NCBI GenBank assembly: GCA_016839705.1
Contig: JAEOTR010000027.1
Location: 1-26,094 of the forward strand
DNA length: 26,094 bases
Direction: 5' to 3'
Source of the DNA: Promethearchaeota archaeon
GTDB lineage: Archaea > Asgardarchaeota > Lokiarchaeia > Sigyniarchaeales > SOKP01
Both the position numbers and the translations under genes were made by a program. Positions 3,831 to 13,539 of the stretch are shown piece by piece. Every line of letters starts with the position of its first letter. The first letter of the stretch is position 1. The notes below the pieces were generated by a model. The model saw only the letters and a program-made list of their open reading frames with translations. It did not search any database and had not been told where the DNA came from.

Positions 3831-4625
3831 ATGGATGTTGAATTGTTAATCATTGGAAATGAAATTTTAATAGGAAAAACGCTAGATAGTAATTCAAATT
3901 GGATGGCAAAAAGGGTTACTCGATATGGTCATAGATTAAGAAGAATTACAACAGTGGGAGATGACTTGGAAATCATTTCTAGTGCACTACAAGAAATTAT
4001 AAAACGAAAACCAGATATAATTATAACTTCAGGTGGCCTAGGTCCAACTTTTGATGATATGACTTTAGAGGGCATAGCAATGGGTTTAAATAGGAAATTA
4101 GAACTAAATAAACACGCCTTATCTTCTATTAAGAAAGTATATAAGCACGCTTACGATAGGGGAATTTTAAAGCTTGAGGGGATGACAAAAGAACGAGAAA
4201 AAATGGCTTATCTTCCCCAGGGTTCCATACCTTTACCAAATACTATAGGGACTGCACCAGGGGTCAAAATTAATGAGGGAGATATACGGCTATATATTTT
4301 ACCGGGAGTACCTACAGAATTAAAATCAATGTTTAGAAATGTGATATTGCCCATTTTGAAAGAGAGACAGGGAAAATTCATAGAAAAGGGATTCCTGTTT
4401 TCTGGAATTGGAGAAAGCCAGATTGCTCCTTATACTGGTGAATTGGAAAAAAAGTATCCGCAATTGTGGATTAAGACTCATCCACACATTGGCCTATCCG
4501 TTGAGGTTGAGATTTCTATAACAGCTTTTAATGTGGAGAATGGAGAAGAACTGGTTGATAAAGTTTTAGATGAAATAAAAGAGATAATTTTAAACCTAAA
4601 AGGTGAAATTATTAATAGAGAATAA
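3831..4625 (+). CDS. CinA-like molybdopterin-binding-fold protein (COG1058, ADP-ribose/FAD pyrophosphatase-like), no NMN deamidase domain
   Basis: IIGNEILIGKTLDSNS, SGGLGPTFDDMT, GTAPG, LPGVPTEL and GIGESQIA motifs. Confidence 0.88.
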   Translation: MDVELLIIGNEILIGKTLDSNSNWMAKRVTRYGHRLRRITTVGDDLEIISSALQEIIKRKPDIIITSGGLGPTFDDMTLEGIAMGLNRKLELNKHALSSIKKVYKHAYDRGILKLEGMTKEREKMAYLPQGSIPLPNTIGTAPGVKINEGDIRLYILPGVPTELKSMFRNVILPILKERQGKFIEKGFLFSGIGESQIAPYTGELEKKYPQLWIKTHPHIGLSVEVEISITAFNVENGEELVDKVLDEIKEIILNLKGEIINRE

Positions 4626-4644
4626 TTATTTATTAAATTCATAT

Positions 4645-4713
4645 CTCCAAATTCCCTTGCTAGGAAGTCATTTTGCGACTATCATTTCTTCACAAAATTC
4701 ATACGTTTTGGAG
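4645..4713 (-). promoter_or_regulatory. SECIS-like element in the 3' UTR of selD copy 1
   Basis: Minus-strand RNA directly after the stop: CUCCAAA-ACGU-AUGA-AUUUUGUGA-AGAAAUGAUAG-UCGCAAAAU-GA-C-UUCCU-AGCAA-GGGAA-UUUGGAG. Helix I 7 bp, AUGA/GA core, helix II 9 bp, A-rich apical loop. Confidence 0.85.
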
Positions 4714-5742
4714 TTATAGTTTGGTAATTTCTATATTTTCTACGTTCTCTGAAATTCTCACAAGACCAGGAGAAACTGCATCAATTGTGCCTAGGATCCA
4801 ATTCGAAATTCCATTATCCGAAAGAATATTAGAAAATTCCTCTGCTTTTAAAGGTTCTATGGCCATAAGCATACCACCCGCTGTCTCAGCACATTTACAT
4901 TCATCAAAATCATAACCTAAATCTTTTGATAAACGATCAGAGAGTTTAATTGATGGTATCGTTTCAATAATCGCTGATAAATTAGAGTTCTGGAGAATTT
5001 CAGATAGATGCCCTGCTAGACCGAAACCTGTAATATCTGTCATAGCATGAATAAATGAAAAATTATCGAAAGAGTGAATTGTTTTCACAACATCCTGGTT
5101 TGGAGTAGTCATTATCTTTATTGCTAGATCAATTGATTTTTTTAGTTGGTTTTTGGAATAAGCTTCAAGCATCTCAGGAAAGTCTTTTAATAATCTATAT
5201 GCTGCCATAACAGGTTGAATTCCGATTGGTTTAGTTAATATCAGTCTATCACCTTTTTTCACTCCTTGTTTTCTAATTATCGCATCCTTATGAACAAATC
5301 CAGAAGCTTCACCACCTATTAATGGCCACTCCGAGTATATTGTATGACCTCCCACTACTTTAGAATGAATCTTCTTTTCCATATAATATTTGATTCCCGC
5401 TAAAATTCCTTCAGCAACCTCCATTGGAGTGTTAGTACTTATTCCTAAAAAGATTAGCATCCCCGAGATGTCCGGAACATTCATTGCAAAAATGTCGTTT
5501 GTTACATTGCACGCGGCTATTTGTCCCATTACTTCGGGTTCATCAACAATGGGGGTAAAGATATCCAAATTTTTTACTTGAACTATATCAGTATTAGGAA
5601 CATGCACAATAGCAGCATCTTCAATATCTCCAGCTAACCCAGTTTTCTCAAGCAAATCATTTAATTCATTAGAGCCAAGTTTACATGATCAACCGAAAAT
5701 CTTTACTTGTTTCGTTAACCTATACTCTATTTTTTTAGGCAT
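4714..5742 (-). CDS. selD: Selenide, water dikinase (selenophosphate synthetase), selenocysteine-containing, copy 1 (342 aa)
   Basis: ATG 5742 after GAGGTGA reads MPKKIEYRLTKQVKIFG-U(TGA 5691-5689)-SCKLG, in frame with ORF 4714..5655. Motifs EDAA, DIFTP, NVTND, GGHT, TDITGFGL, ETAGG. Confidence 0.93.
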
Positions 5743-5744
5743 AC

Positions 5745-5751
5745 TCACCTC
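5745..5751 (-). promoter_or_regulatory. Shine-Dalgarno site of selD copy 1
   Basis: GAGGTGA just upstream of ATG 5742. Confidence 0.7.
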
Positions 5752-5977
5752 ACTTTTGCATAAATTTCTTTTTTATTAAAATAGTAAGCGTTTTCTTAAT
5801 TAATTTAAAATATTAAGCAAGCAAAAAAATTGTGTTTATTTATTAAAATTTTCGATTTAATTTATCGAAGAAATAGATAAGTCTCATTAATTGTCTTAAT
5901 TAAGGTGTACATTAAATTAAAGCAGTATAAATCTAAATCAAAAAATGAGAGAAAACTAAAATTTCTAGCAAATTATA

Positions 5978-6049
5978 CGATGCCGCCTTGCAACGGATTT
6001 CTCAATAAGCGTCCGCATTGCTGCATTTTTGCTTATTTCATTGACATCG
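5978..6049 (-). promoter_or_regulatory. SECIS-like element in the 3' UTR of selD copy 2
   Basis: Minus-strand RNA directly after the stop: CGAUG-UCA-AUGA-AAUAAGC-AAAAAU-GCA-GCAA-UGC-GGAC-GCUUAUU-GA-GAAAU-CCGUU-GCAA-GGCGG-CAUCG. AUGA/GA core, perfect 7-bp helix II, apical A-run with mini-stem, closing helix I. Confidence 0.85.
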
Positions 6050-7081
6050 TTAGATATTTGTTATTTCAATATATTCAACATCATCAGAGATGCGAATATT
6101 CTTAGGTTTTTTAATGTTATCGATTGTACCAACAATCCAATTAGAGATATCGTTCTTGGTTAATTTTTCTGAAAATTCTTCTGCTTGTCTATGATCAACG
6201 GAGATAAGCATACCTCCCGCAGTTTCTGGCATTTCAGCTGTATCAAATTTATAACCGAATTCATACGCTAATTCTTGTGTAAGTCTAATAATAGGTATCC
6301 TATCAAGAATGGCTGAAAGTTTAGAATTTTGAAGCATTTCTTTCAGATGTCCAGCTAAACCAAATCCGGAAACGTCGGTCATTGAGTGTATGAAATGCAC
6401 ATTTGGATACGAATGGATTGTTTTTACAACATCTTGAAGCGGTGTGGTCATAAGGTTAATTGCGGTTTCAATGGAAATATCAAGTTCTTTTGATGAAAAG
6501 CTTTCCAACAGAGCGGGGTTGTTTTTTTGTAGACGATATGCTGCCATAATGGCTTGATTGCCAACTGGCTTAGTTAGGATTAATTTATCTCCTAATTCAA
6601 CATAATTTTTCCGTATTATCTTGCTTTTCTCAACGAATCCAGATGCTTCACCACCTATCAACGGCCATTCGGAGTATATTGTATGACCCCCTAAGACTTT
6701 GGAATTTATTTTATGTTCCATGAAATTTTTAATTCCACGAAGTATGCCTTCTGAAACATAAGTTGGCATGTTCTTCTTGATCCCAAGGAAAACGAGCATA
6801 CCGGAAATTTCAAGAACATTCAAAGCAAAGACATCATTTGTAACATTAGCAGCAGCAATCTCTCCCACTATCTCTGGCTCATCTAAGATTGGTGTGAATA
6901 TGTCAAGGTTCTTTACCATGACAAGGTCGGTATTAGGCACAGGAATTACCGCAGAATCTTCAATATCTCCTTTCAAACCAACTCTAGATAAAAGGTTCTC
7001 TAGCTTTTTCGCTTCAACTTTACAATTTCAACCAAATAGTTTCGTTTGGAGCGTCAATCGATAACTCTCTAACTCTTGCAT
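6050..7081 (-). CDS. selD: Selenide, water dikinase (selenophosphate synthetase), selenocysteine-containing, copy 2 (343 aa)
   Basis: ATG 7081 after GAGGTGA reads MQELESYRLTLQTKLFG-U(TGA 7030-7028)-NCKVE, in frame with ORF 6050..6976. Motifs EDSA, DIFTP, NVTND, GGHT, TDVSGFGL, PETAGG. Confidence 0.93.
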
Positions 7082-7221: not shown

Positions 7222-10200
7222 TTATGGTAAAAATATTTCAATATGCTTGGTTGTCTTTCTCATATTATCGTACTGGTCTCTATAGAACAATTCTAATTTA
7301 ATTTCATCGGCAGTAGGGTCAAATAAATTCTTTTTAAGTTCTTCTTGCTTATCAACTTTTAACACATAATTAAATTTAAAAGATGTTCCAGGTTTTAATT
7401 CGTTTAGCTGGAGATATTTTGGAAAGCTTTCTTTTCTTTGTAGATTAACGTAAGTAGGTACTTTTAAAGAAATCTGAAAGTCTCTAAAATCAAAATTTGA
7501 AGGATTAGTAAGTTTACAATTTAGATATATGTCATTTCCAATGGTTTTTATATTCTTGAAAAAGGATACTTCTTTTGAATCTATGATCTCAGATTCAAGT
7601 TCTTGATAATACAGTTTATCATTTATGATTTTAGCATTTAATTTTTTTTTGTTGATAAATCTAAGAACTAATTCCTTTATTTGCTCTTTTTCTAAATCAA
7701 GATAGGATGAGAGTAATTCAAATTTAATAGGATTAATAATTCTCCTATAATATTTAATCTGGTTAAGATGGAGTTTATTCTCACTTTTCCGAACGAAATT
7801 ATTTAACCTATTTATCAATAATTCTTTTGAAGCATTAAATTTGTTAATATAAGGTCTTACGTATAAATTGAATATATTATTATCTTCTAAAACCTTCTCT
7901 TTCCCAATAACATTTTCTATTTGTATTTCAGTCTCTTCTATGTAATTTTGGATTTGTGTAGAATTTAGTTTAATTAATTTCTTCACATCTGAGAATTCAT
8001 TTTTTTTAATTAGAAATTCTAATTTCGAAGTTAATGAACTAAAGTTATCATTTAATTTCTTAATACCTTCAATCCTCTCAGTTATAATAGATTGGATATG
8101 GCCTTGTAATAATTGAAATCTTAGTTCATTATTCATGCCTGCAATTCCAAGCTCGTTGGAGAGTTTACTAACCTGCCCACTCTGAAAAACTTGACCAACT
8201 AAACTATCTTTAATAGTTTTAATCTGTCGATCTAAATTAATCAAGTATTCTTGAATTTCAATTTTAGTTGAGACCCATTTTCTTAGTAGATCTTTAAAAA
8301 GTTCGTCAAATTCCACATTGATTACTAATAATTCTCTTATTTCTCCATCCAACTGGAATGTCTTTTTTCTTATTTGAGTTATATAAGCGAATTTTTCATT
8401 TTCTTCATCATCTTCATCCTGTTCAGAGATTTCTGAATCTACATCCATTTTAAACTTATTTTCTTTTATATAATCAAACTCCGCTTTTAAAATACTAATA
8501 CGATTATCCAACAACTTAATTTCTTCTTGTAACTTGAATATAAATTCGTTTTTTTTCTCTTCACAGATTTCAGAGATAAAACTTTTTATGATACTCAATT
8601 CCTCAATAATTTGAACTTTAATATCCTCCCACTCTTCAATTAAATCAAATACTAATCTTTTATATTCAAATCTATTAATAACATTATCAAATTTTTTTAT
8701 TTTTATTAGAATCTTGCTATATTTTTTATTCAACTGAATTTCAGTATCATTAAACTTAAAATTGTTAATATATGAGTTTAATTTCTCTCTAAATTTTGCA
8801 GGTAATTTTTGAAATTCGAGCATTTTCTCATGAAATAATGCTAAATCATTATTAATCCTTTCAATAGTAGAATCGGTGTTTTTAAAATTTACTTTAATAT
8901 TCTCTAAAGTATAAAGGATTTCATTTTTAACTTCTGGATCTTTTTCAATCTGTAAAGATTTATTCAGTTCAATAATAATCCAAACTGCCATTTTATGATC
9001 TTTTAAAATAAAGCATATAAGGTTAAGCAAATTGATAGTTCTCTTTCTTTCACGCCAATATCGTGATTCTAATTGATATAAGATTCGAGTTATTTCATTT
9101 TCCATTTCTATTTGAAATTCCTCAAACAAACGTTTAAATACTAAGGAAATTCCCTCCCTAATTGTTTCAGATGGGTTTTCTAATTCTTCAAATAAATAGG
9201 GAAATATATTCGTAATATTTTTTTGACTGAGTTGATATAATGCATTTATTAGTGAATTTCTATAATATAATTGCTCAGTTTCTACTAAAGAATGCAATAA
9301 GTTCGCCCATATCTGATCAAAGTTATTTTCTGCTATATTGACGAGAGCTTCAATCACTTTTAATTGAATACGGTAATCTTTTTCCTTTAAGAGATTTATC
9401 AATTTTGGGATAATAGAGATAATTTCAGATGATTTTTCTTTACCAATCTCACCAAAAAGCCAAATTATTAATTCTTTAACCCTACTCTCTTCGTTATAGA
9501 GAAGGTTAAGAAGGATATAAAATAGTTTTTCTTTAGAGAGGAAATATGTACCATGAATTTTTAACAGTTCAGCAGCAGCTTTCGCAACGTCTTCATCTTC
9601 GTCTCTAAGATTAATAATAACCATTGACAATAATGGTTCTAAATTTTTTATTTTGGTGTAATCTTGATTTAATATCTTCTGAATAATTTTAATTACATTT
9701 AGTTTAACTTTCCAGTCATTATCCATTAATTTTTCCGTATATTCTACAATAATTTCGTGTAATTCCTCTACATCAATATGCAGTGATAAAATTAAATTTC
9801 CAATAATTTTTACTGTAAGTCTTCGTACTGTGGGATCTTGATCATATAATCTTGCCCGAATTTTGCCGATCAAATTTATAAATAGATTAGGTCTGAATAA
9901 ACTAATTTGATACAATATTTCTAACGTAACTAACCGTATCCAAGAATCTGAATCATTGATATAATGTTGAACGTATTTTACTGTTTTTAATGAAATTGAG
10001 GGAGACTTATCACAGATTAAGTTTAATAAACTAAAACATCTATAAAGGAGTTCAGTATCAGCATGATTTTGATATTTCTCGATAACGTTAAATATTTCTT
10101 CAGCGGCTTTTTCATTATAGCCATTTAGAATCAAGCTTTCAATTTTTTCAGTGTCTAAGGTTAGAGTTGTCAATGGTCTTGGAATTTTTCGGTTATTTTT

Positions 10201-10230
10201 AATTTTTATCTCAATGATCTTTTCTATCAA
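7222..10230 (-). CDS. Large HEAT-repeat protein with coiled-coil middle, PCI-like winged helix and C-terminal beta-sandwich
   Basis: HEAT motifs (INDSDSWIRLVTL, LYDQDPTVRRLTV, LMDNDWKVKLNVI, LRDEDEDVAKAAA, LENPSETIREGI); PCI-like IKFELLSSYLDLEKEQIKELVLRFINKKKLNAKII; beta-rich tail. Start uncertain (TTG 10230 or TTG 10173). Confidence 0.75.
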   Translation of the reverse strand: MIEKIIEIKIKNNRKIPRPLTTLTLDTEKIESLILNGYNEKAAEEIFNVIEKYQNHADTELLYRCFSLLNLICDKSPSISLKTVKYVQHYINDSDSWIRLVTLEILYQISLFRPNLFINLIGKIRARLYDQDPTVRRLTVKIIGNLILSLHIDVEELHEIIVEYTEKLMDNDWKVKLNVIKIIQKILNQDYTKIKNLEPLLSMVIINLRDEDEDVAKAAAELLKIHGTYFLSKEKLFYILLNLLYNEESRVKELIIWLFGEIGKEKSSEIISIIPKLINLLKEKDYRIQLKVIEALVNIAENNFDQIWANLLHSLVETEQLYYRNSLINALYQLSQKNITNIFPYLFEELENPSETIREGISLVFKRLFEEFQIEMENEITRILYQLESRYWRERKRTINLLNLICFILKDHKMAVWIIIELNKSLQIEKDPEVKNEILYTLENIKVNFKNTDSTIERINNDLALFHEKMLEFQKLPAKFREKLNSYINNFKFNDTEIQLNKKYSKILIKIKKFDNVINRFEYKRLVFDLIEEWEDIKVQIIEELSIIKSFISEICEEKKNEFIFKLQEEIKLLDNRISILKAEFDYIKENKFKMDVDSEISEQDEDDEENEKFAYITQIRKKTFQLDGEIRELLVINVEFDELFKDLLRKWVSTKIEIQEYLINLDRQIKTIKDSLVGQVFQSGQVSKLSNELGIAGMNNELRFQLLQGHIQSIITERIEGIKKLNDNFSSLTSKLEFLIKKNEFSDVKKLIKLNSTQIQNYIEETEIQIENVIGKEKVLEDNNIFNLYVRPYINKFNASKELLINRLNNFVRKSENKLHLNQIKYYRRIINPIKFELLSSYLDLEKEQIKELVLRFINKKKLNAKIINDKLYYQELESEIIDSKEVSFFKNIKTIGNDIYLNCKLTNPSNFDFRDFQISLKVPTYVNLQRKESFPKYLQLNELKPGTSFKFNYVLKVDKQEELKKNLFDPTADEIKLELFYRDQYDNMRKTTKHIEIFLP

Positions 10231-11565: not shown

Positions 11566-13539
11566 TTATTTTTTGAATTGAGGTATATTCCCTGCAAATA
11601 TATCCGTAATAAATGCCTCGAGGAAAGGGAAATCTTTGAATTCAATGACTTGGCTTGTCTGGTAAAATTTTTCAAGGGTTTGCCAAATTAAAGCGCTTTT
11701 TTGAATTTTTTCTACAAAATATTTTAATTTTTGTTTTGCCGGATAGGTTTGCCCTTTATATACATAACCTATGGAAAAATTATCTACCGTTTCCATGAGT
11801 ACTGTGTATTGGCCAAATTTTACACGATCAAGCCCTTCAGAGAAAAATTCATCACTGAAAGAGGTAAAAGCAGTTAAAAAGCTTCCAAAAAGCTGATTAT
11901 CTCGTTTCCATTCATCTGTAAAAGGATATGAAAATAATAGAACTCCTCCTTCTGCCAGAATCATGAGAAGTATAGGGTCTTCTTCAATAACTTCTGGGGG
12001 ATCTGTCGTACGTGTTTCTAATAAACGTTTAATTACTCCCTCAAAAGAAGAGAGCTCAATACGTTCTGATAATGGTGGCTCCTTTTCTTTCATATTTTTC
12101 CACTTACTTAATTGTTCTAATAAGATGTCATGTTCATTTGATATCTTTTGAGCTAATAATCCAAGTCCCTTATTATCAGCGATTTCTTGAGCTTGTGTTA
12201 AAAATTTCCTAGCTTCTCCCATATTCATTTGAATAAATGCTAATTTAGCTTTTAAAAGATAAGTTTCAGCTAATTTCCAAGAAGAATTTTGTTTTAATGC
12301 ATGTTCACTCAACAGATTAATTATGGGATTTATCTCATCAAATAAGTTCATGTCGTTAGATCGTAGTAATTCAGCCAAGAGTAAATCACATAATTGGATT
12401 AAAGCCCATTCATTCGAGTGCACATCGAGGGAGTCTAACTTAATGAAATCTTTTAAAATCATTTCAGCTTTAATACGATCACGAATATTAGCACTAGATT
12501 TTAAAACTATAGCTTTTGAGAGCTGAAATTCCCTTTTTAATGCCTCATTGTTAGAATTATCAACAATTTGTTTGCTAATGTTTAAGTAATTATTTACCTC
12601 TTCAAAGTCTTCTTTTTCTATATTAATCTCAATTAAAGTGAGTAAGACTGTCAGTTTAAGTTGTGGGAAAACCGCTATTTTAAAACTTCGCTTACCAAAT
12701 TCGAGAGCGCGATCTAAATCACCCTTCATTCTAGACATTTCACTGGTCATTCTAAACGATGCTGCTAGACAAGGTTTATAGTTTATTTCCTTAGCAAACT
12801 TTTGCCATTGCTTATTAAATTTTATGGCACGTTCTAAATCTCCCTTGTTTCTTAGAGCATACACTAATCTACCAAATGCTTTGCATTTATATATCTTTGG
12901 GAATTCATTATTCGCAATTATCTGCACTGAATACGTTATAGATTCATCTAAATCTCCTTTGAAATAATAAAGACGTACAAATGACATAAGAATCTCAGCA
13001 ATACGCGATTTATTACCTAGTTTCTCTTGGATCATTAGAGCTTTGTTGAAATGTTCAATAGCTTTAGTAAATTCTTTTTTAACATAATAATATATGATTC
13101 CTTTAAGATGCATCAGATCTGATTCTCTGTTCATTAACTCTGTAGGAGGAATACCTTTAAAATTAGTAAAAATGTTTTCCAATTGTTCCGTTAATTGAAG
13201 TACCGTCTTTTCTTCAATTAAAGAACCGAATTGATGTACCGTCCATTTGATATAGTATAACAAAACCCAAATTTTGGCAATGAGAGCATCAAAAACATGC
13301 AATTTGGATCCTAGGGTTTTGCTTTTTTGGTACGCTTCTTGGGTGATTTTTTTAGCTTCTTCAGGATATCCAAGAGCACTATACACTTTGCCCTTTAGGA
13401 TTAACCATTCAAGGTGTTCTTCAGGAGGAATTAGTTTTTTACCTTCGAATTCCTCAATAACTTGAAGTGATTTATCGAGTTTTCCGTTATCGTAAAGATC
13501 TTGTGCTTGCTTCAAATCAAGAATTGTTGAAATTGACAT
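11566..13539 (-). CDS. TPR-repeat protein with C-terminal longin-like domain
   Basis: Many TPR helices (KAIEHFNKAL, KGDLERAIKF, KGDLDRALEF); tail ILLMILAEGGVLLFSYPF...QLFGSFLTAFTSFSDEFF...LDRVKFGQYTVLM fits a longin-like pattern. Confidence 0.75.
   Translation of the reverse strand: MSISTILDLKQAQDLYDNGKLDKSLQVIEEFEGKKLIPPEEHLEWLILKGKVYSALGYPEEAKKITQEAYQKSKTLGSKLHVFDALIAKIWVLLYYIKWTVHQFGSLIEEKTVLQLTEQLENIFTNFKGIPPTELMNRESDLMHLKGIIYYYVKKEFTKAIEHFNKALMIQEKLGNKSRIAEILMSFVRLYYFKGDLDESITYSVQIIANNEFPKIYKCKAFGRLVYALRNKGDLERAIKFNKQWQKFAKEINYKPCLAASFRMTSEMSRMKGDLDRALEFGKRSFKIAVFPQLKLTVLLTLIEINIEKEDFEEVNNYLNISKQIVDNSNNEALKREFQLSKAIVLKSSANIRDRIKAEMILKDFIKLDSLDVHSNEWALIQLCDLLLAELLRSNDMNLFDEINPIINLLSEHALKQNSSWKLAETYLLKAKLAFIQMNMGEARKFLTQAQEIADNKGLGLLAQKISNEHDILLEQLSKWKNMKEKEPPLSERIELSSFEGVIKRLLETRTTDPPEVIEEDPILLMILAEGGVLLFSYPFTDEWKRDNQLFGSFLTAFTSFSDEFFSEGLDRVKFGQYTVLMETVDNFSIGYVYKGQTYPAKQKLKYFVEKIQKSALIWQTLEKFYQTSQVIEFKDFPFLEAFITDIFAGNIPQFKK

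Follow-up and report, generated by a model that had tools for sequence, protein, structure and literature searches.

A three-armed RNA behind an archaeal selD gene, a probable eukaryote-like selenocysteine insertion sequence of type II

Introduction

How is the UGA codon at the catalytic position of an archaeal selenophosphate synthetase (selD) marked for selenocysteine (Sec), and do two copies of the gene in tandem rely on the same kind of signal? These questions are raised by a stretch of 26,094 nt (hereafter, the window; contig JAEOTR010000027.1 of assembly GCA_016839705.1, contig C5 in our numbering) from a Promethearchaeota archaeon, which carries the genes selD-1 and selD-2 on its minus strand. 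A first-pass annotation, made from the letters of the sequence, had placed a Sec insertion sequence (SECIS) behind each of the two genes; we refer to these elements as SECIS-1 and SECIS-2.

The text of Mariotti et al. (2016; PMC4989117) describes a lokiSECIS specific for the selenophosphate synthetase (SPS) gene, in which the main stem is shorter and the apex bears an additional stem. According to the text of Huang et al. (2024; PMC11227280), the elements behind Asgard selD genes are mainly of type II, with the core AUGA_GA and, in Lokiarchaeia, an AAAAA run, and at least two selD genes occur in 51 Loki/Thor genomes; the same text proposes selD as an intermediate in the transition from archaeal to eukaryotic Sec insertion, with the Asgard SECIS as the link. 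Here we describe the 72-nt RNA at 6049-5978 of the minus strand, which is very probably the SECIS of selD-2, a selD-specific, eukaryote-like element of type II. This assignment is based on the covariation of its fold, the invariant unpaired bases of SECIS type, its placement behind selD, the UGA codon of that gene, the Sec machinery of the genome, and the literature.

Results

Tandem selD genes and the Sec machinery

The source genome (G000) has 3.36 Mb, is 93% complete and has about 30% GC. The selD-1 and selD-2 proteins are 62% identical, and both contain the Pfam domains AIRS and AIRS_C. A protein search found selD in 137 of 151 genomes of the same order, with one in-frame TGA in nearly all of the matches listed, and the tandem pair proved to be common in the genus of the source genome. 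The relatives are MAGs labelled Promethearchaeota or Promethearchaeia, i.e., Lokiarchaeia-type Asgard archaea. The in-frame TGA of selD-2 occupies the same aligned position in the orthologues, and the AUGA core of SECIS-2 follows it at a distance of 987 nt. The coordinates of the pair and of both elements are collected in Table 1.

Both tRNA-SeC (C18:39386-39471, found by ARAGORN) and SepSecS (380 bits) are encoded in the source genome. Another candidate for tRNA-Sec, of 99 nt on contig C49, had matches to Rfam RF01852 below the threshold only and was rejected, the ARAGORN gene on C18 being taken instead; the 99-nt match resembles an intron-containing tRNA. For a genome that is 93% complete, ARAGORN at its default settings reported few tRNA genes, only 12, and many tRNA genes may carry introns.

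The gene directly upstream of selD-2 (7222-10230, minus strand) encodes a HEAT/Arm-repeat protein of 1002 residues with a weak match to condensin Cnd1, and TPR-rich proteins are encoded at 293-2179 and 11566-13539 of the window. On the opposite strand, an open reading frame (ORF) of 66 codons (5905-6105, plus strand) spans the selD-2 stop codon and SECIS-2; it is probably spurious, the covariation pattern at SECIS-2 fitting an RNA structure. We take the U6 run downstream of SECIS-2 to be a possible archaeal transcription stop of the oligo-T kind, in which case SECIS-2 would lie in the 3' UTR of the selD-2 transcript.

Table 1. Positions of the selD genes, SECIS elements and neighbouring features in the window
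Feature	Position	Strand	Description
selD-2 (selenophosphate synthetase) CDS	6050..7081	-	ATG 7081-7079; stop TAA 6052-6050; translated with TGA=U
selD-2 Sec codon UGA	7028..7030	-	codon 18; motif F-G-U-N-C-K; catalytic position
SECIS-2, whole element	6049-5978	-	72 nt, directly 3' of the selD-2 stop TAA (6052-6050)
Helix I, 5' strand	6049-6045	-	CGAUG; outermost pair co-varies (CG 24, UA 16, AU 12)
5' internal loop	6044-6042	-	UCA; precedes the AUGA core
Core AUGA	6041-6038	-	G6039 and A6038 are presumed sheared G.A partners
Helix II, 5' strand	6037-6031	-	AAUAAGC; perfect pairing with 6010-6004
Apical unpaired A-run	6030-6026	-	AAAAA; matches the published Lokiarchaeia pattern (PMC11227280)
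Ministem, type II apex	6025-6022 with 6017-6014	-	UGCA/UGCG; GCAA loop 6021-6018
3' bulge	6013-6011	-	GAC; between ministem and helix II
Helix II, 3' strand	6010-6004	-	GCUUAUU
3' core	6003-6002	-	GA
Linker	6001-5997	-	GAAAU; between the 3' GA and the side hairpin
Side hairpin (third arm)	5996-5983	-	CCGUU-GCAA-GGCGG; stems 5996-5992/5987-5983, loop 5991-5988; on the strand without the bulge
Helix I, 3' strand	5982-5978	-	CAUCG; adjoins the side hairpin with no linker
U6 run	5945-5940	-	33 nt after SECIS-2; seen in the sequence only
selD-1 CDS	5742-4714	-	UGA 5691-5689; in tandem with selD-2
SECIS-1, type I	4645..4713	-	behind selD-1; helix I CUCCAAA/UUUGGAG; AUGA 4702-4699
SECIS-1, GA and side hairpin	4669-4668; 4666-4652	-

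The fold of SECIS-2

The first-pass annotation had built SECIS-2 from an AUGA, the helix AAUAAGC/GCUUAUU, a GA, and an apical AAAAA followed by the mini-hairpin GCA-GCAA-UGC. Each of the first four parts lies exactly where it had been placed, and the mini-hairpin is present as well, longer by one U.G pair (UGCA-GCAA-UGCG, 6025-6014). The element indeed begins at the first base after the stop codon, as had been noted; 67 of 72 related elements share this start, a stop codon filling the three columns before helix I. The same 72 nt also contain two parts that had not been described, helix I (CGAUG/CAUCG) and the side hairpin; helix I can be extended by pairing of A6050, from the stop codon, with U5977.

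Energies calculated from the single sequence do not favour this fold. On 96 nt, the minimum free energy (MFE) structure is a different one, with an unremarkable z of -0.41; helix I is retained there, but 6015-6011 has 5997-5993 as its partner. When the calculation is confined to the exact 74 nt, the MFE structure is no more stable than the proposed fold (-18.3 kcal/mol for both), and the pair probabilities of helix II are about 0.45. The comparison of orthologues leads to another result. Alignment of the 3' ends was easy for 29 selD-2 orthologues (proteins 70-81% identical), and RNAalifold returned all four helices of SECIS-2 from the 30 orthologous 3' ends. In the MAFFT alignment of the 30 sequences, pairing is seen in 94.9% of the cells and double changes in 11 of the 21 pairs, which was equalled in none of 500 shuffles; slid controls on the same alignment had 25-50% of cells paired. 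The MFE structures of 20 of the 30 orthologues contain at least 15 of the 21 consensus pairs, and the alternative pairing 6015-6011/5997-5993 is not kept in orthologues.

A covariance model, R1, was built from the orthologues and gathered 74 elements, 72 of them distinct, located after either selD paralogue or, within the family, after selD genes present as a single copy. Over the 72 distinct sequences, 94.0% of the cells in the four helices are paired, with double changes in 16 of 21 pairs; this alignment was fitted to R1 and is thus biased towards the structure, the MAFFT result being the independent one. In the larger set, double changes occur in five of the seven pairs of helix II, in three of the four pairs of the ministem (e.g., CACA/UGUG and CGUA/UACG), and in all five pairs of the side hairpin, where 96.9% of the cells are paired.

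The unpaired positions are conserved to a similarly high degree in the 72 sequences. In the AUGA core, the G and the final A are invariant, the U is found in 71 and the preceding A in 67; in the 3' core GA, the G is found in 69 (A in the other three) and the A in all 72. The last three adenines of the apical run are present in every sequence, and the loop of the side hairpin starts with G in 71. The AUGA/GA core, whose absence from homologues had been named in the first-pass annotation as grounds for dropping the element, is therefore kept in them. The other such ground was lack of folding support for helix II: the single-sequence energies do not provide this support, whereas the orthologue comparison recovers the helix. 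Since this comparison settles the matter, where the single sequence is not convincing, we accept the fold as real; covariation shows SECIS-2 to be a three-way junction, with helix I at its base, one arm that carries the AUGA/GA core, helix II, the unpaired AAA and the ministem, and the side hairpin as the other arm.

Specificity and association with selenoprotein genes

In the 3.36-Mb source genome, the R1 search returned the SECIS-2 site (92.6 bits, E = 1.3e-19) and no other comparable match, the next best having 20.8 bits and E = 0.64. A sample of 151 genomes of the phylum yielded 30 matches in 23 genomes, all in one family (f1), and their coordinates put every one of the 30 no more than 13 nt from where a selD match ends. 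No R1 matches were obtained beyond f1 in this sample, because the model is too sequence-specific, and elements outside f1 were located through the selD protein and then read by eye or by MFE folding. The Rfam SECIS families also gave no match, either at the gathering score or at E <= 10 on 4550-6150; for SECIS-2 this agrees with the remark of Mariotti et al. that standard SECIS tools fail on Loki (PMC4989117).

Both strands of the whole 3.36 Mb were also scanned for a strict motif (A/G-UGA, a perfect helix of 7-9 bp, an A-rich start of the loop, and GA or AA). Among the 11 matches, six are SECIS-like. Five of these stand behind UGA-containing ORFs of recognisable selenoprotein families, namely two selD genes, two VhuD/FrhD genes with two UGA codons each and a peroxiredoxin-like gene with one UGA, and the sixth stands behind an ORF of 159 codons with two UGA codons. 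A third VhuD/FrhD element, on C3, was noticed by eye outside the strict scan, its helix II being interrupted by a bulge. Thus, apart from selD-2, elements of the AUGA/GA kind are found in the genome behind three VhuD/FrhD genes, one peroxiredoxin-like gene and selD-1.

The 159-codon ORF (G000:C73:86790-87269, i.e., L102:1191-1670, plus strand) has both its UGA codons in frame and has no Pfam match. Directly after it comes a SECIS of type I, whose side hairpin has 6 bp, and the ORF may encode an unassigned selenoprotein.

As a negative control, a clean selD gene of the Cys type with no element behind it was looked for, and none was found among the relatives examined. Two candidates were rejected. 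The selD matches of family f18 (L152, L153) show no in-frame TGA in the aligned part, but this starts at residue 26, and they have a full three-armed AUGA/GA element after the stop codon; their Sec codon is probably located further towards the N-terminus, in the part left unaligned. The selD-2 gene of genome G015, at first taken to have no TGA, does contain the UGA, followed by a frame-breaking insertion of 31 nt (L106:488-518) right after the Sec-Asn-Cys codons. Its SECIS is nonetheless the best-scoring one (102 bits), and the insertion is either an assembly error or the mark of a recent pseudogene.

Class of SECIS-2 and comparison with known elements

SECIS-2 is the published selD-specific element of Asgard archaea, that is, the SPS lokiSECIS of Mariotti et al. 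and the type II eSECIS-like element of Huang et al. Its kind is already known, and this locus contributes one more member, well supported and strongly co-varying. In the type II definition of Huang et al., the core is 5'-GA...[G/A]A-3', usually AUGA_GA, and SECIS-2 has AUGA and GA; the upper stem is of 7-15 bp with at most two mismatches, here 7 bp with none; the ministem of 2-8 bp and the apical loop of 2-6 nt are represented by 4 bp and the 4-nt GCAA; and the bulge of 4-12 nt by AAAAA plus GAC, 8 nt together. As to placement, the definition asks for the 3' UTR of a gene whose in-frame UGA encodes Sec and for Sec machinery in the genome; here these are represented by the UGA of selD-2, and by tRNA-SeC and SepSecS. 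The initial identification of SECIS-2 as a SECIS-type element serving selD-2 is supported by covariation and by the placement behind selD.

Compared with the SPS lokiSECIS and the Asgard type II elements, SECIS-2 has the same location in the 3' UTR after selD, the AUGA...GA core, the short main stem, the A-run and the ministem. It differs on the 3' side of its internal loop, where a co-varying hairpin with a G-C-R-N loop makes the element a three-way junction. The type I lokiSECIS elements (PrxL, VhuU, HdrA-VhuD; Mariotti et al. 2016) share the AUGA/GA core and the A-rich start of the apex, and in the source genome they have the same basal helix and side hairpin as SECIS-2. However, type I is characterized by a fixed stem of 9 bp and an 11-nt loop ending in G, and SECIS-2 does not fit this pattern, having 7 bp and a 20-nt apex with the ministem.

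The likeness to the eukaryotic SECIS of form 2 (Rfam RF00031, SECIS_1), to which the first-pass annotation had drawn attention, is borne out by the type II apex with its AAAAA and ministem, and it extends to the location in the 3' UTR, from which the element would act at a distance, the AUGA/GA quartet and the unpaired adenines. Helix II, with its 7 bp, is indeed much shorter than in eukaryotes, as had also been pointed out, and the hairpin in the 3' internal loop is a further difference. For SBP2, the eukaryotic binding protein, no homologue is known in archaea (PMC4989117, PMC9723677). The SECIS of Euryarchaeota (Methanococcales and Methanopyrus) is likewise an archaeal Sec signal in the 3' UTR; in contrast to the core of SECIS-2, which is of the eukaryotic type, it has a GAA_A bulge, a GC-rich stem of 10 bp and three GC pairs. 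Inspection of the sequence and of the consensus fold revealed no GAA_A arrangement in 5978-6049 or its flanks.

SECIS-1 belongs to another class

Helix II of SECIS-1 has 9 bp (AUUUUGUGA/UCGCAAAAU) and is closed by an 11-nt loop ending in AG, which agrees with the type I criterion; a single compensated pair separates the element from that of a VhuD gene of the same genome on contig C15. SECIS-1 and SECIS-2 are therefore of different classes, and not co-varied versions of one fold. In the first-pass annotation, selection on structure had been deduced from the fact that the stems of SECIS-2 differ from those of SECIS-1 with pairing kept. The selection is real and is established by the orthologues; the argument from the paralogues does not hold, the two elements being of different classes. 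The first-pass annotation had also suggested that the two elements may differ in the efficiency of read-through.

All 18 selD-1 orthologues with the 3' end within the loci taken have a type II element. Type I is found behind selD-1 in the nearest relative as well (G122, 83% identical selD-1; L100:1108-1180). The SelD phylogeny, which is a quick tree only, places these two type I cases in the selD-1 clade, inside a well-supported and otherwise type II group, and in the same tree all 34 rows of the selD-2 clade are type II; type I is also found in genus g6, and the more distant families are type II. Since both the orthologues of selD-1 and the distant families have type II elements, the form of SECIS-2 appears to be ancestral, and SECIS-1 appears to be a type I replacement of a type II element, common to the lineage of the source genome and G122. 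The replacement possibly involved a transfer of the 3' end. Helix I is similar (CUCCAnA) in SECIS-1 of both these genomes and in genus g6.

The third arm

The side hairpin is present in all seven SECIS candidates of the source genome, of both types. Behind selD, a third arm was also found in families f2, f4, f9, f10, f15, f18 and f21 (35-43% protein identity); in f9, f15 and f18 the three-way junction was obtained from unconstrained MFE folding, and the third arms in f10, f21, f2 and genus g6 were read by eye only. An automatic filter for three-way junctions missed nine of 20 distant loci, seven of them having no passing fold and two (L144, L145) giving an irrelevant fold in the coding region. 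The loops of the third arms are usually G-C-R-A or contain GC or GU.

The text of the Asgard SECIS papers (PMC4989117, PMC11227280), figures aside, does not mention the side hairpin, and that of Huang et al. also considers an 'internal loop' and a 'lower stem' (PMC11227280). A full-text literature search for SECIS together with 'three-way junction' returned nothing relevant.

Discussion

We propose the following mode of action for SECIS-2, derived from the eukaryotic model and from the association of the element with Sec genes. The tandem G.A pairs would form a kink-turn-like core, and this core, together with the apical adenines, would recruit EFSec with Sec-tRNASec, either directly or through an adaptor. 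The complex would deliver Sec-tRNASec at the UGA codon 18, 987 nt upstream, so that Sec is inserted instead of termination. Each of the two selD paralogues would be served by its own element.

A different job for this three-armed 3' UTR RNA, such as stabilisation of the transcript, formation of its 3' end or regulation of selD by an L7Ae-type protein, would require that the Sec signal be located elsewhere, and no alternative signal, e.g., the euryarchaeal GAA_A, is seen in the 3' UTR of selD-2. The position of the element is compatible with such a job, as it sits at the stop codon and 33 nt before the U6 run; moreover, kink-turn motifs are general protein-binding sites (PMC5061560), and the literature searched contains no functional test of any Asgard SECIS. 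On the other hand, stability or termination alone would not account for the strict conservation of unpaired bases, and the invariant ones (AUGA, GA and the apical AAA) are the signature of a SECIS. In addition, the motif occurs in the source genome almost only behind UGA-containing genes. All in all, we regard a function other than Sec insertion as unlikely.

A two-state switch, in which the SECIS fold and the isoenergetic MFE alternative would alternate and tune the expression of selD-2, is suggested by the tie of both folds at -18.3 kcal/mol on 74 nt and by the helix II pair probabilities near 0.45. Yet the stabilisation by G.A pairs is left out of the energy model, orthologues do not conserve the alternative pairing, the MFE structures of two thirds of the orthologues (20 of 30) share at least 15 of the 21 consensus pairs, and covariation backs the three-way fold alone; we consider the switch very unlikely. 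Finally, a chance origin of the AUGA...GA pattern and its short, AU-rich helix in a genome of 30% GC, as the 7 bp of helix II and the unremarkable single-sequence z might suggest, is a negligible prospect, already refuted by RNAalifold, the pair counts with their compensatory changes over 72 distinct sequences and the R1 search (E of 1e-19 in its own genome), the strict pattern having moreover only 11 matches on both strands of 3.36 Mb.

With SECIS-2 read as the Sec signal of selD-2, the locus shows that tandem selD paralogues can bear different classes of SECIS through class replacement, the class change in selD-1 apparently being a case of one class replaced by another within the lineage of the source genome. 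The three-armed shape supported here is not stated in the text of the published Asgard models. The class difference of the paralogues and the third arm are useful details, and not a new kind of element.

In the topology of its secondary structure, SECIS-2 resembles a k-junction, a kink-turn whose strand without the bulge carries an extra helix and whose C and T helices stack coaxially (PMC10573300). At this level, the two have in common tandem G.A pairs (presumed for SECIS-2) and a third helix that is inserted between A1n and the C helix, opposite the bulge (k-junctions as in Wang et al. 2014, PMC4005666, and Li et al. 2023, PMC10573300). They differ in the bulged-strand loop (5 nt in SECIS-2, 3 nt in k-junctions) and in the connector (5 nt and 2 nt, respectively). 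The third helix of SECIS-2 directly adjoins helix I. Given this adjoining position, coaxial stacking of the C and T helices, as in k-junctions, would be possible. The known k-junctions belong to riboswitches and the DUF-3268 RNA, and not to recoding signals. We tentatively suggest, as a possibility we hold to be rather doubtful, that the third arm, whose loop nearly always begins with G and a pyrimidine, makes the Asgard SECIS k-junction-like and docks an archaeal SECIS-recognition factor or the ribosome, that it is an ancestral part which eukaryotes lost with the takeover by SBP2, and that the selD paralogues combine this common platform with two apices for separate control.

Two features lend themselves to mutation in reporter work, namely the third arm and the spacing of zero that is constantly kept to the stop codon. 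Because helix I begins at the stop codon, the terminating ribosome would have to unwind it in every round, and the element would refold between ribosomes. The 3' ends of the selD genes in family f9 (L136-L141, L154, L155), which is GC-richer, show a still closer arrangement, where the stop codon UGA doubles as the UGA of the AUGA core; with GAGACCG, the 5' strand of helix I, still within the coding sequence, the SECIS there overlaps the end of the gene.
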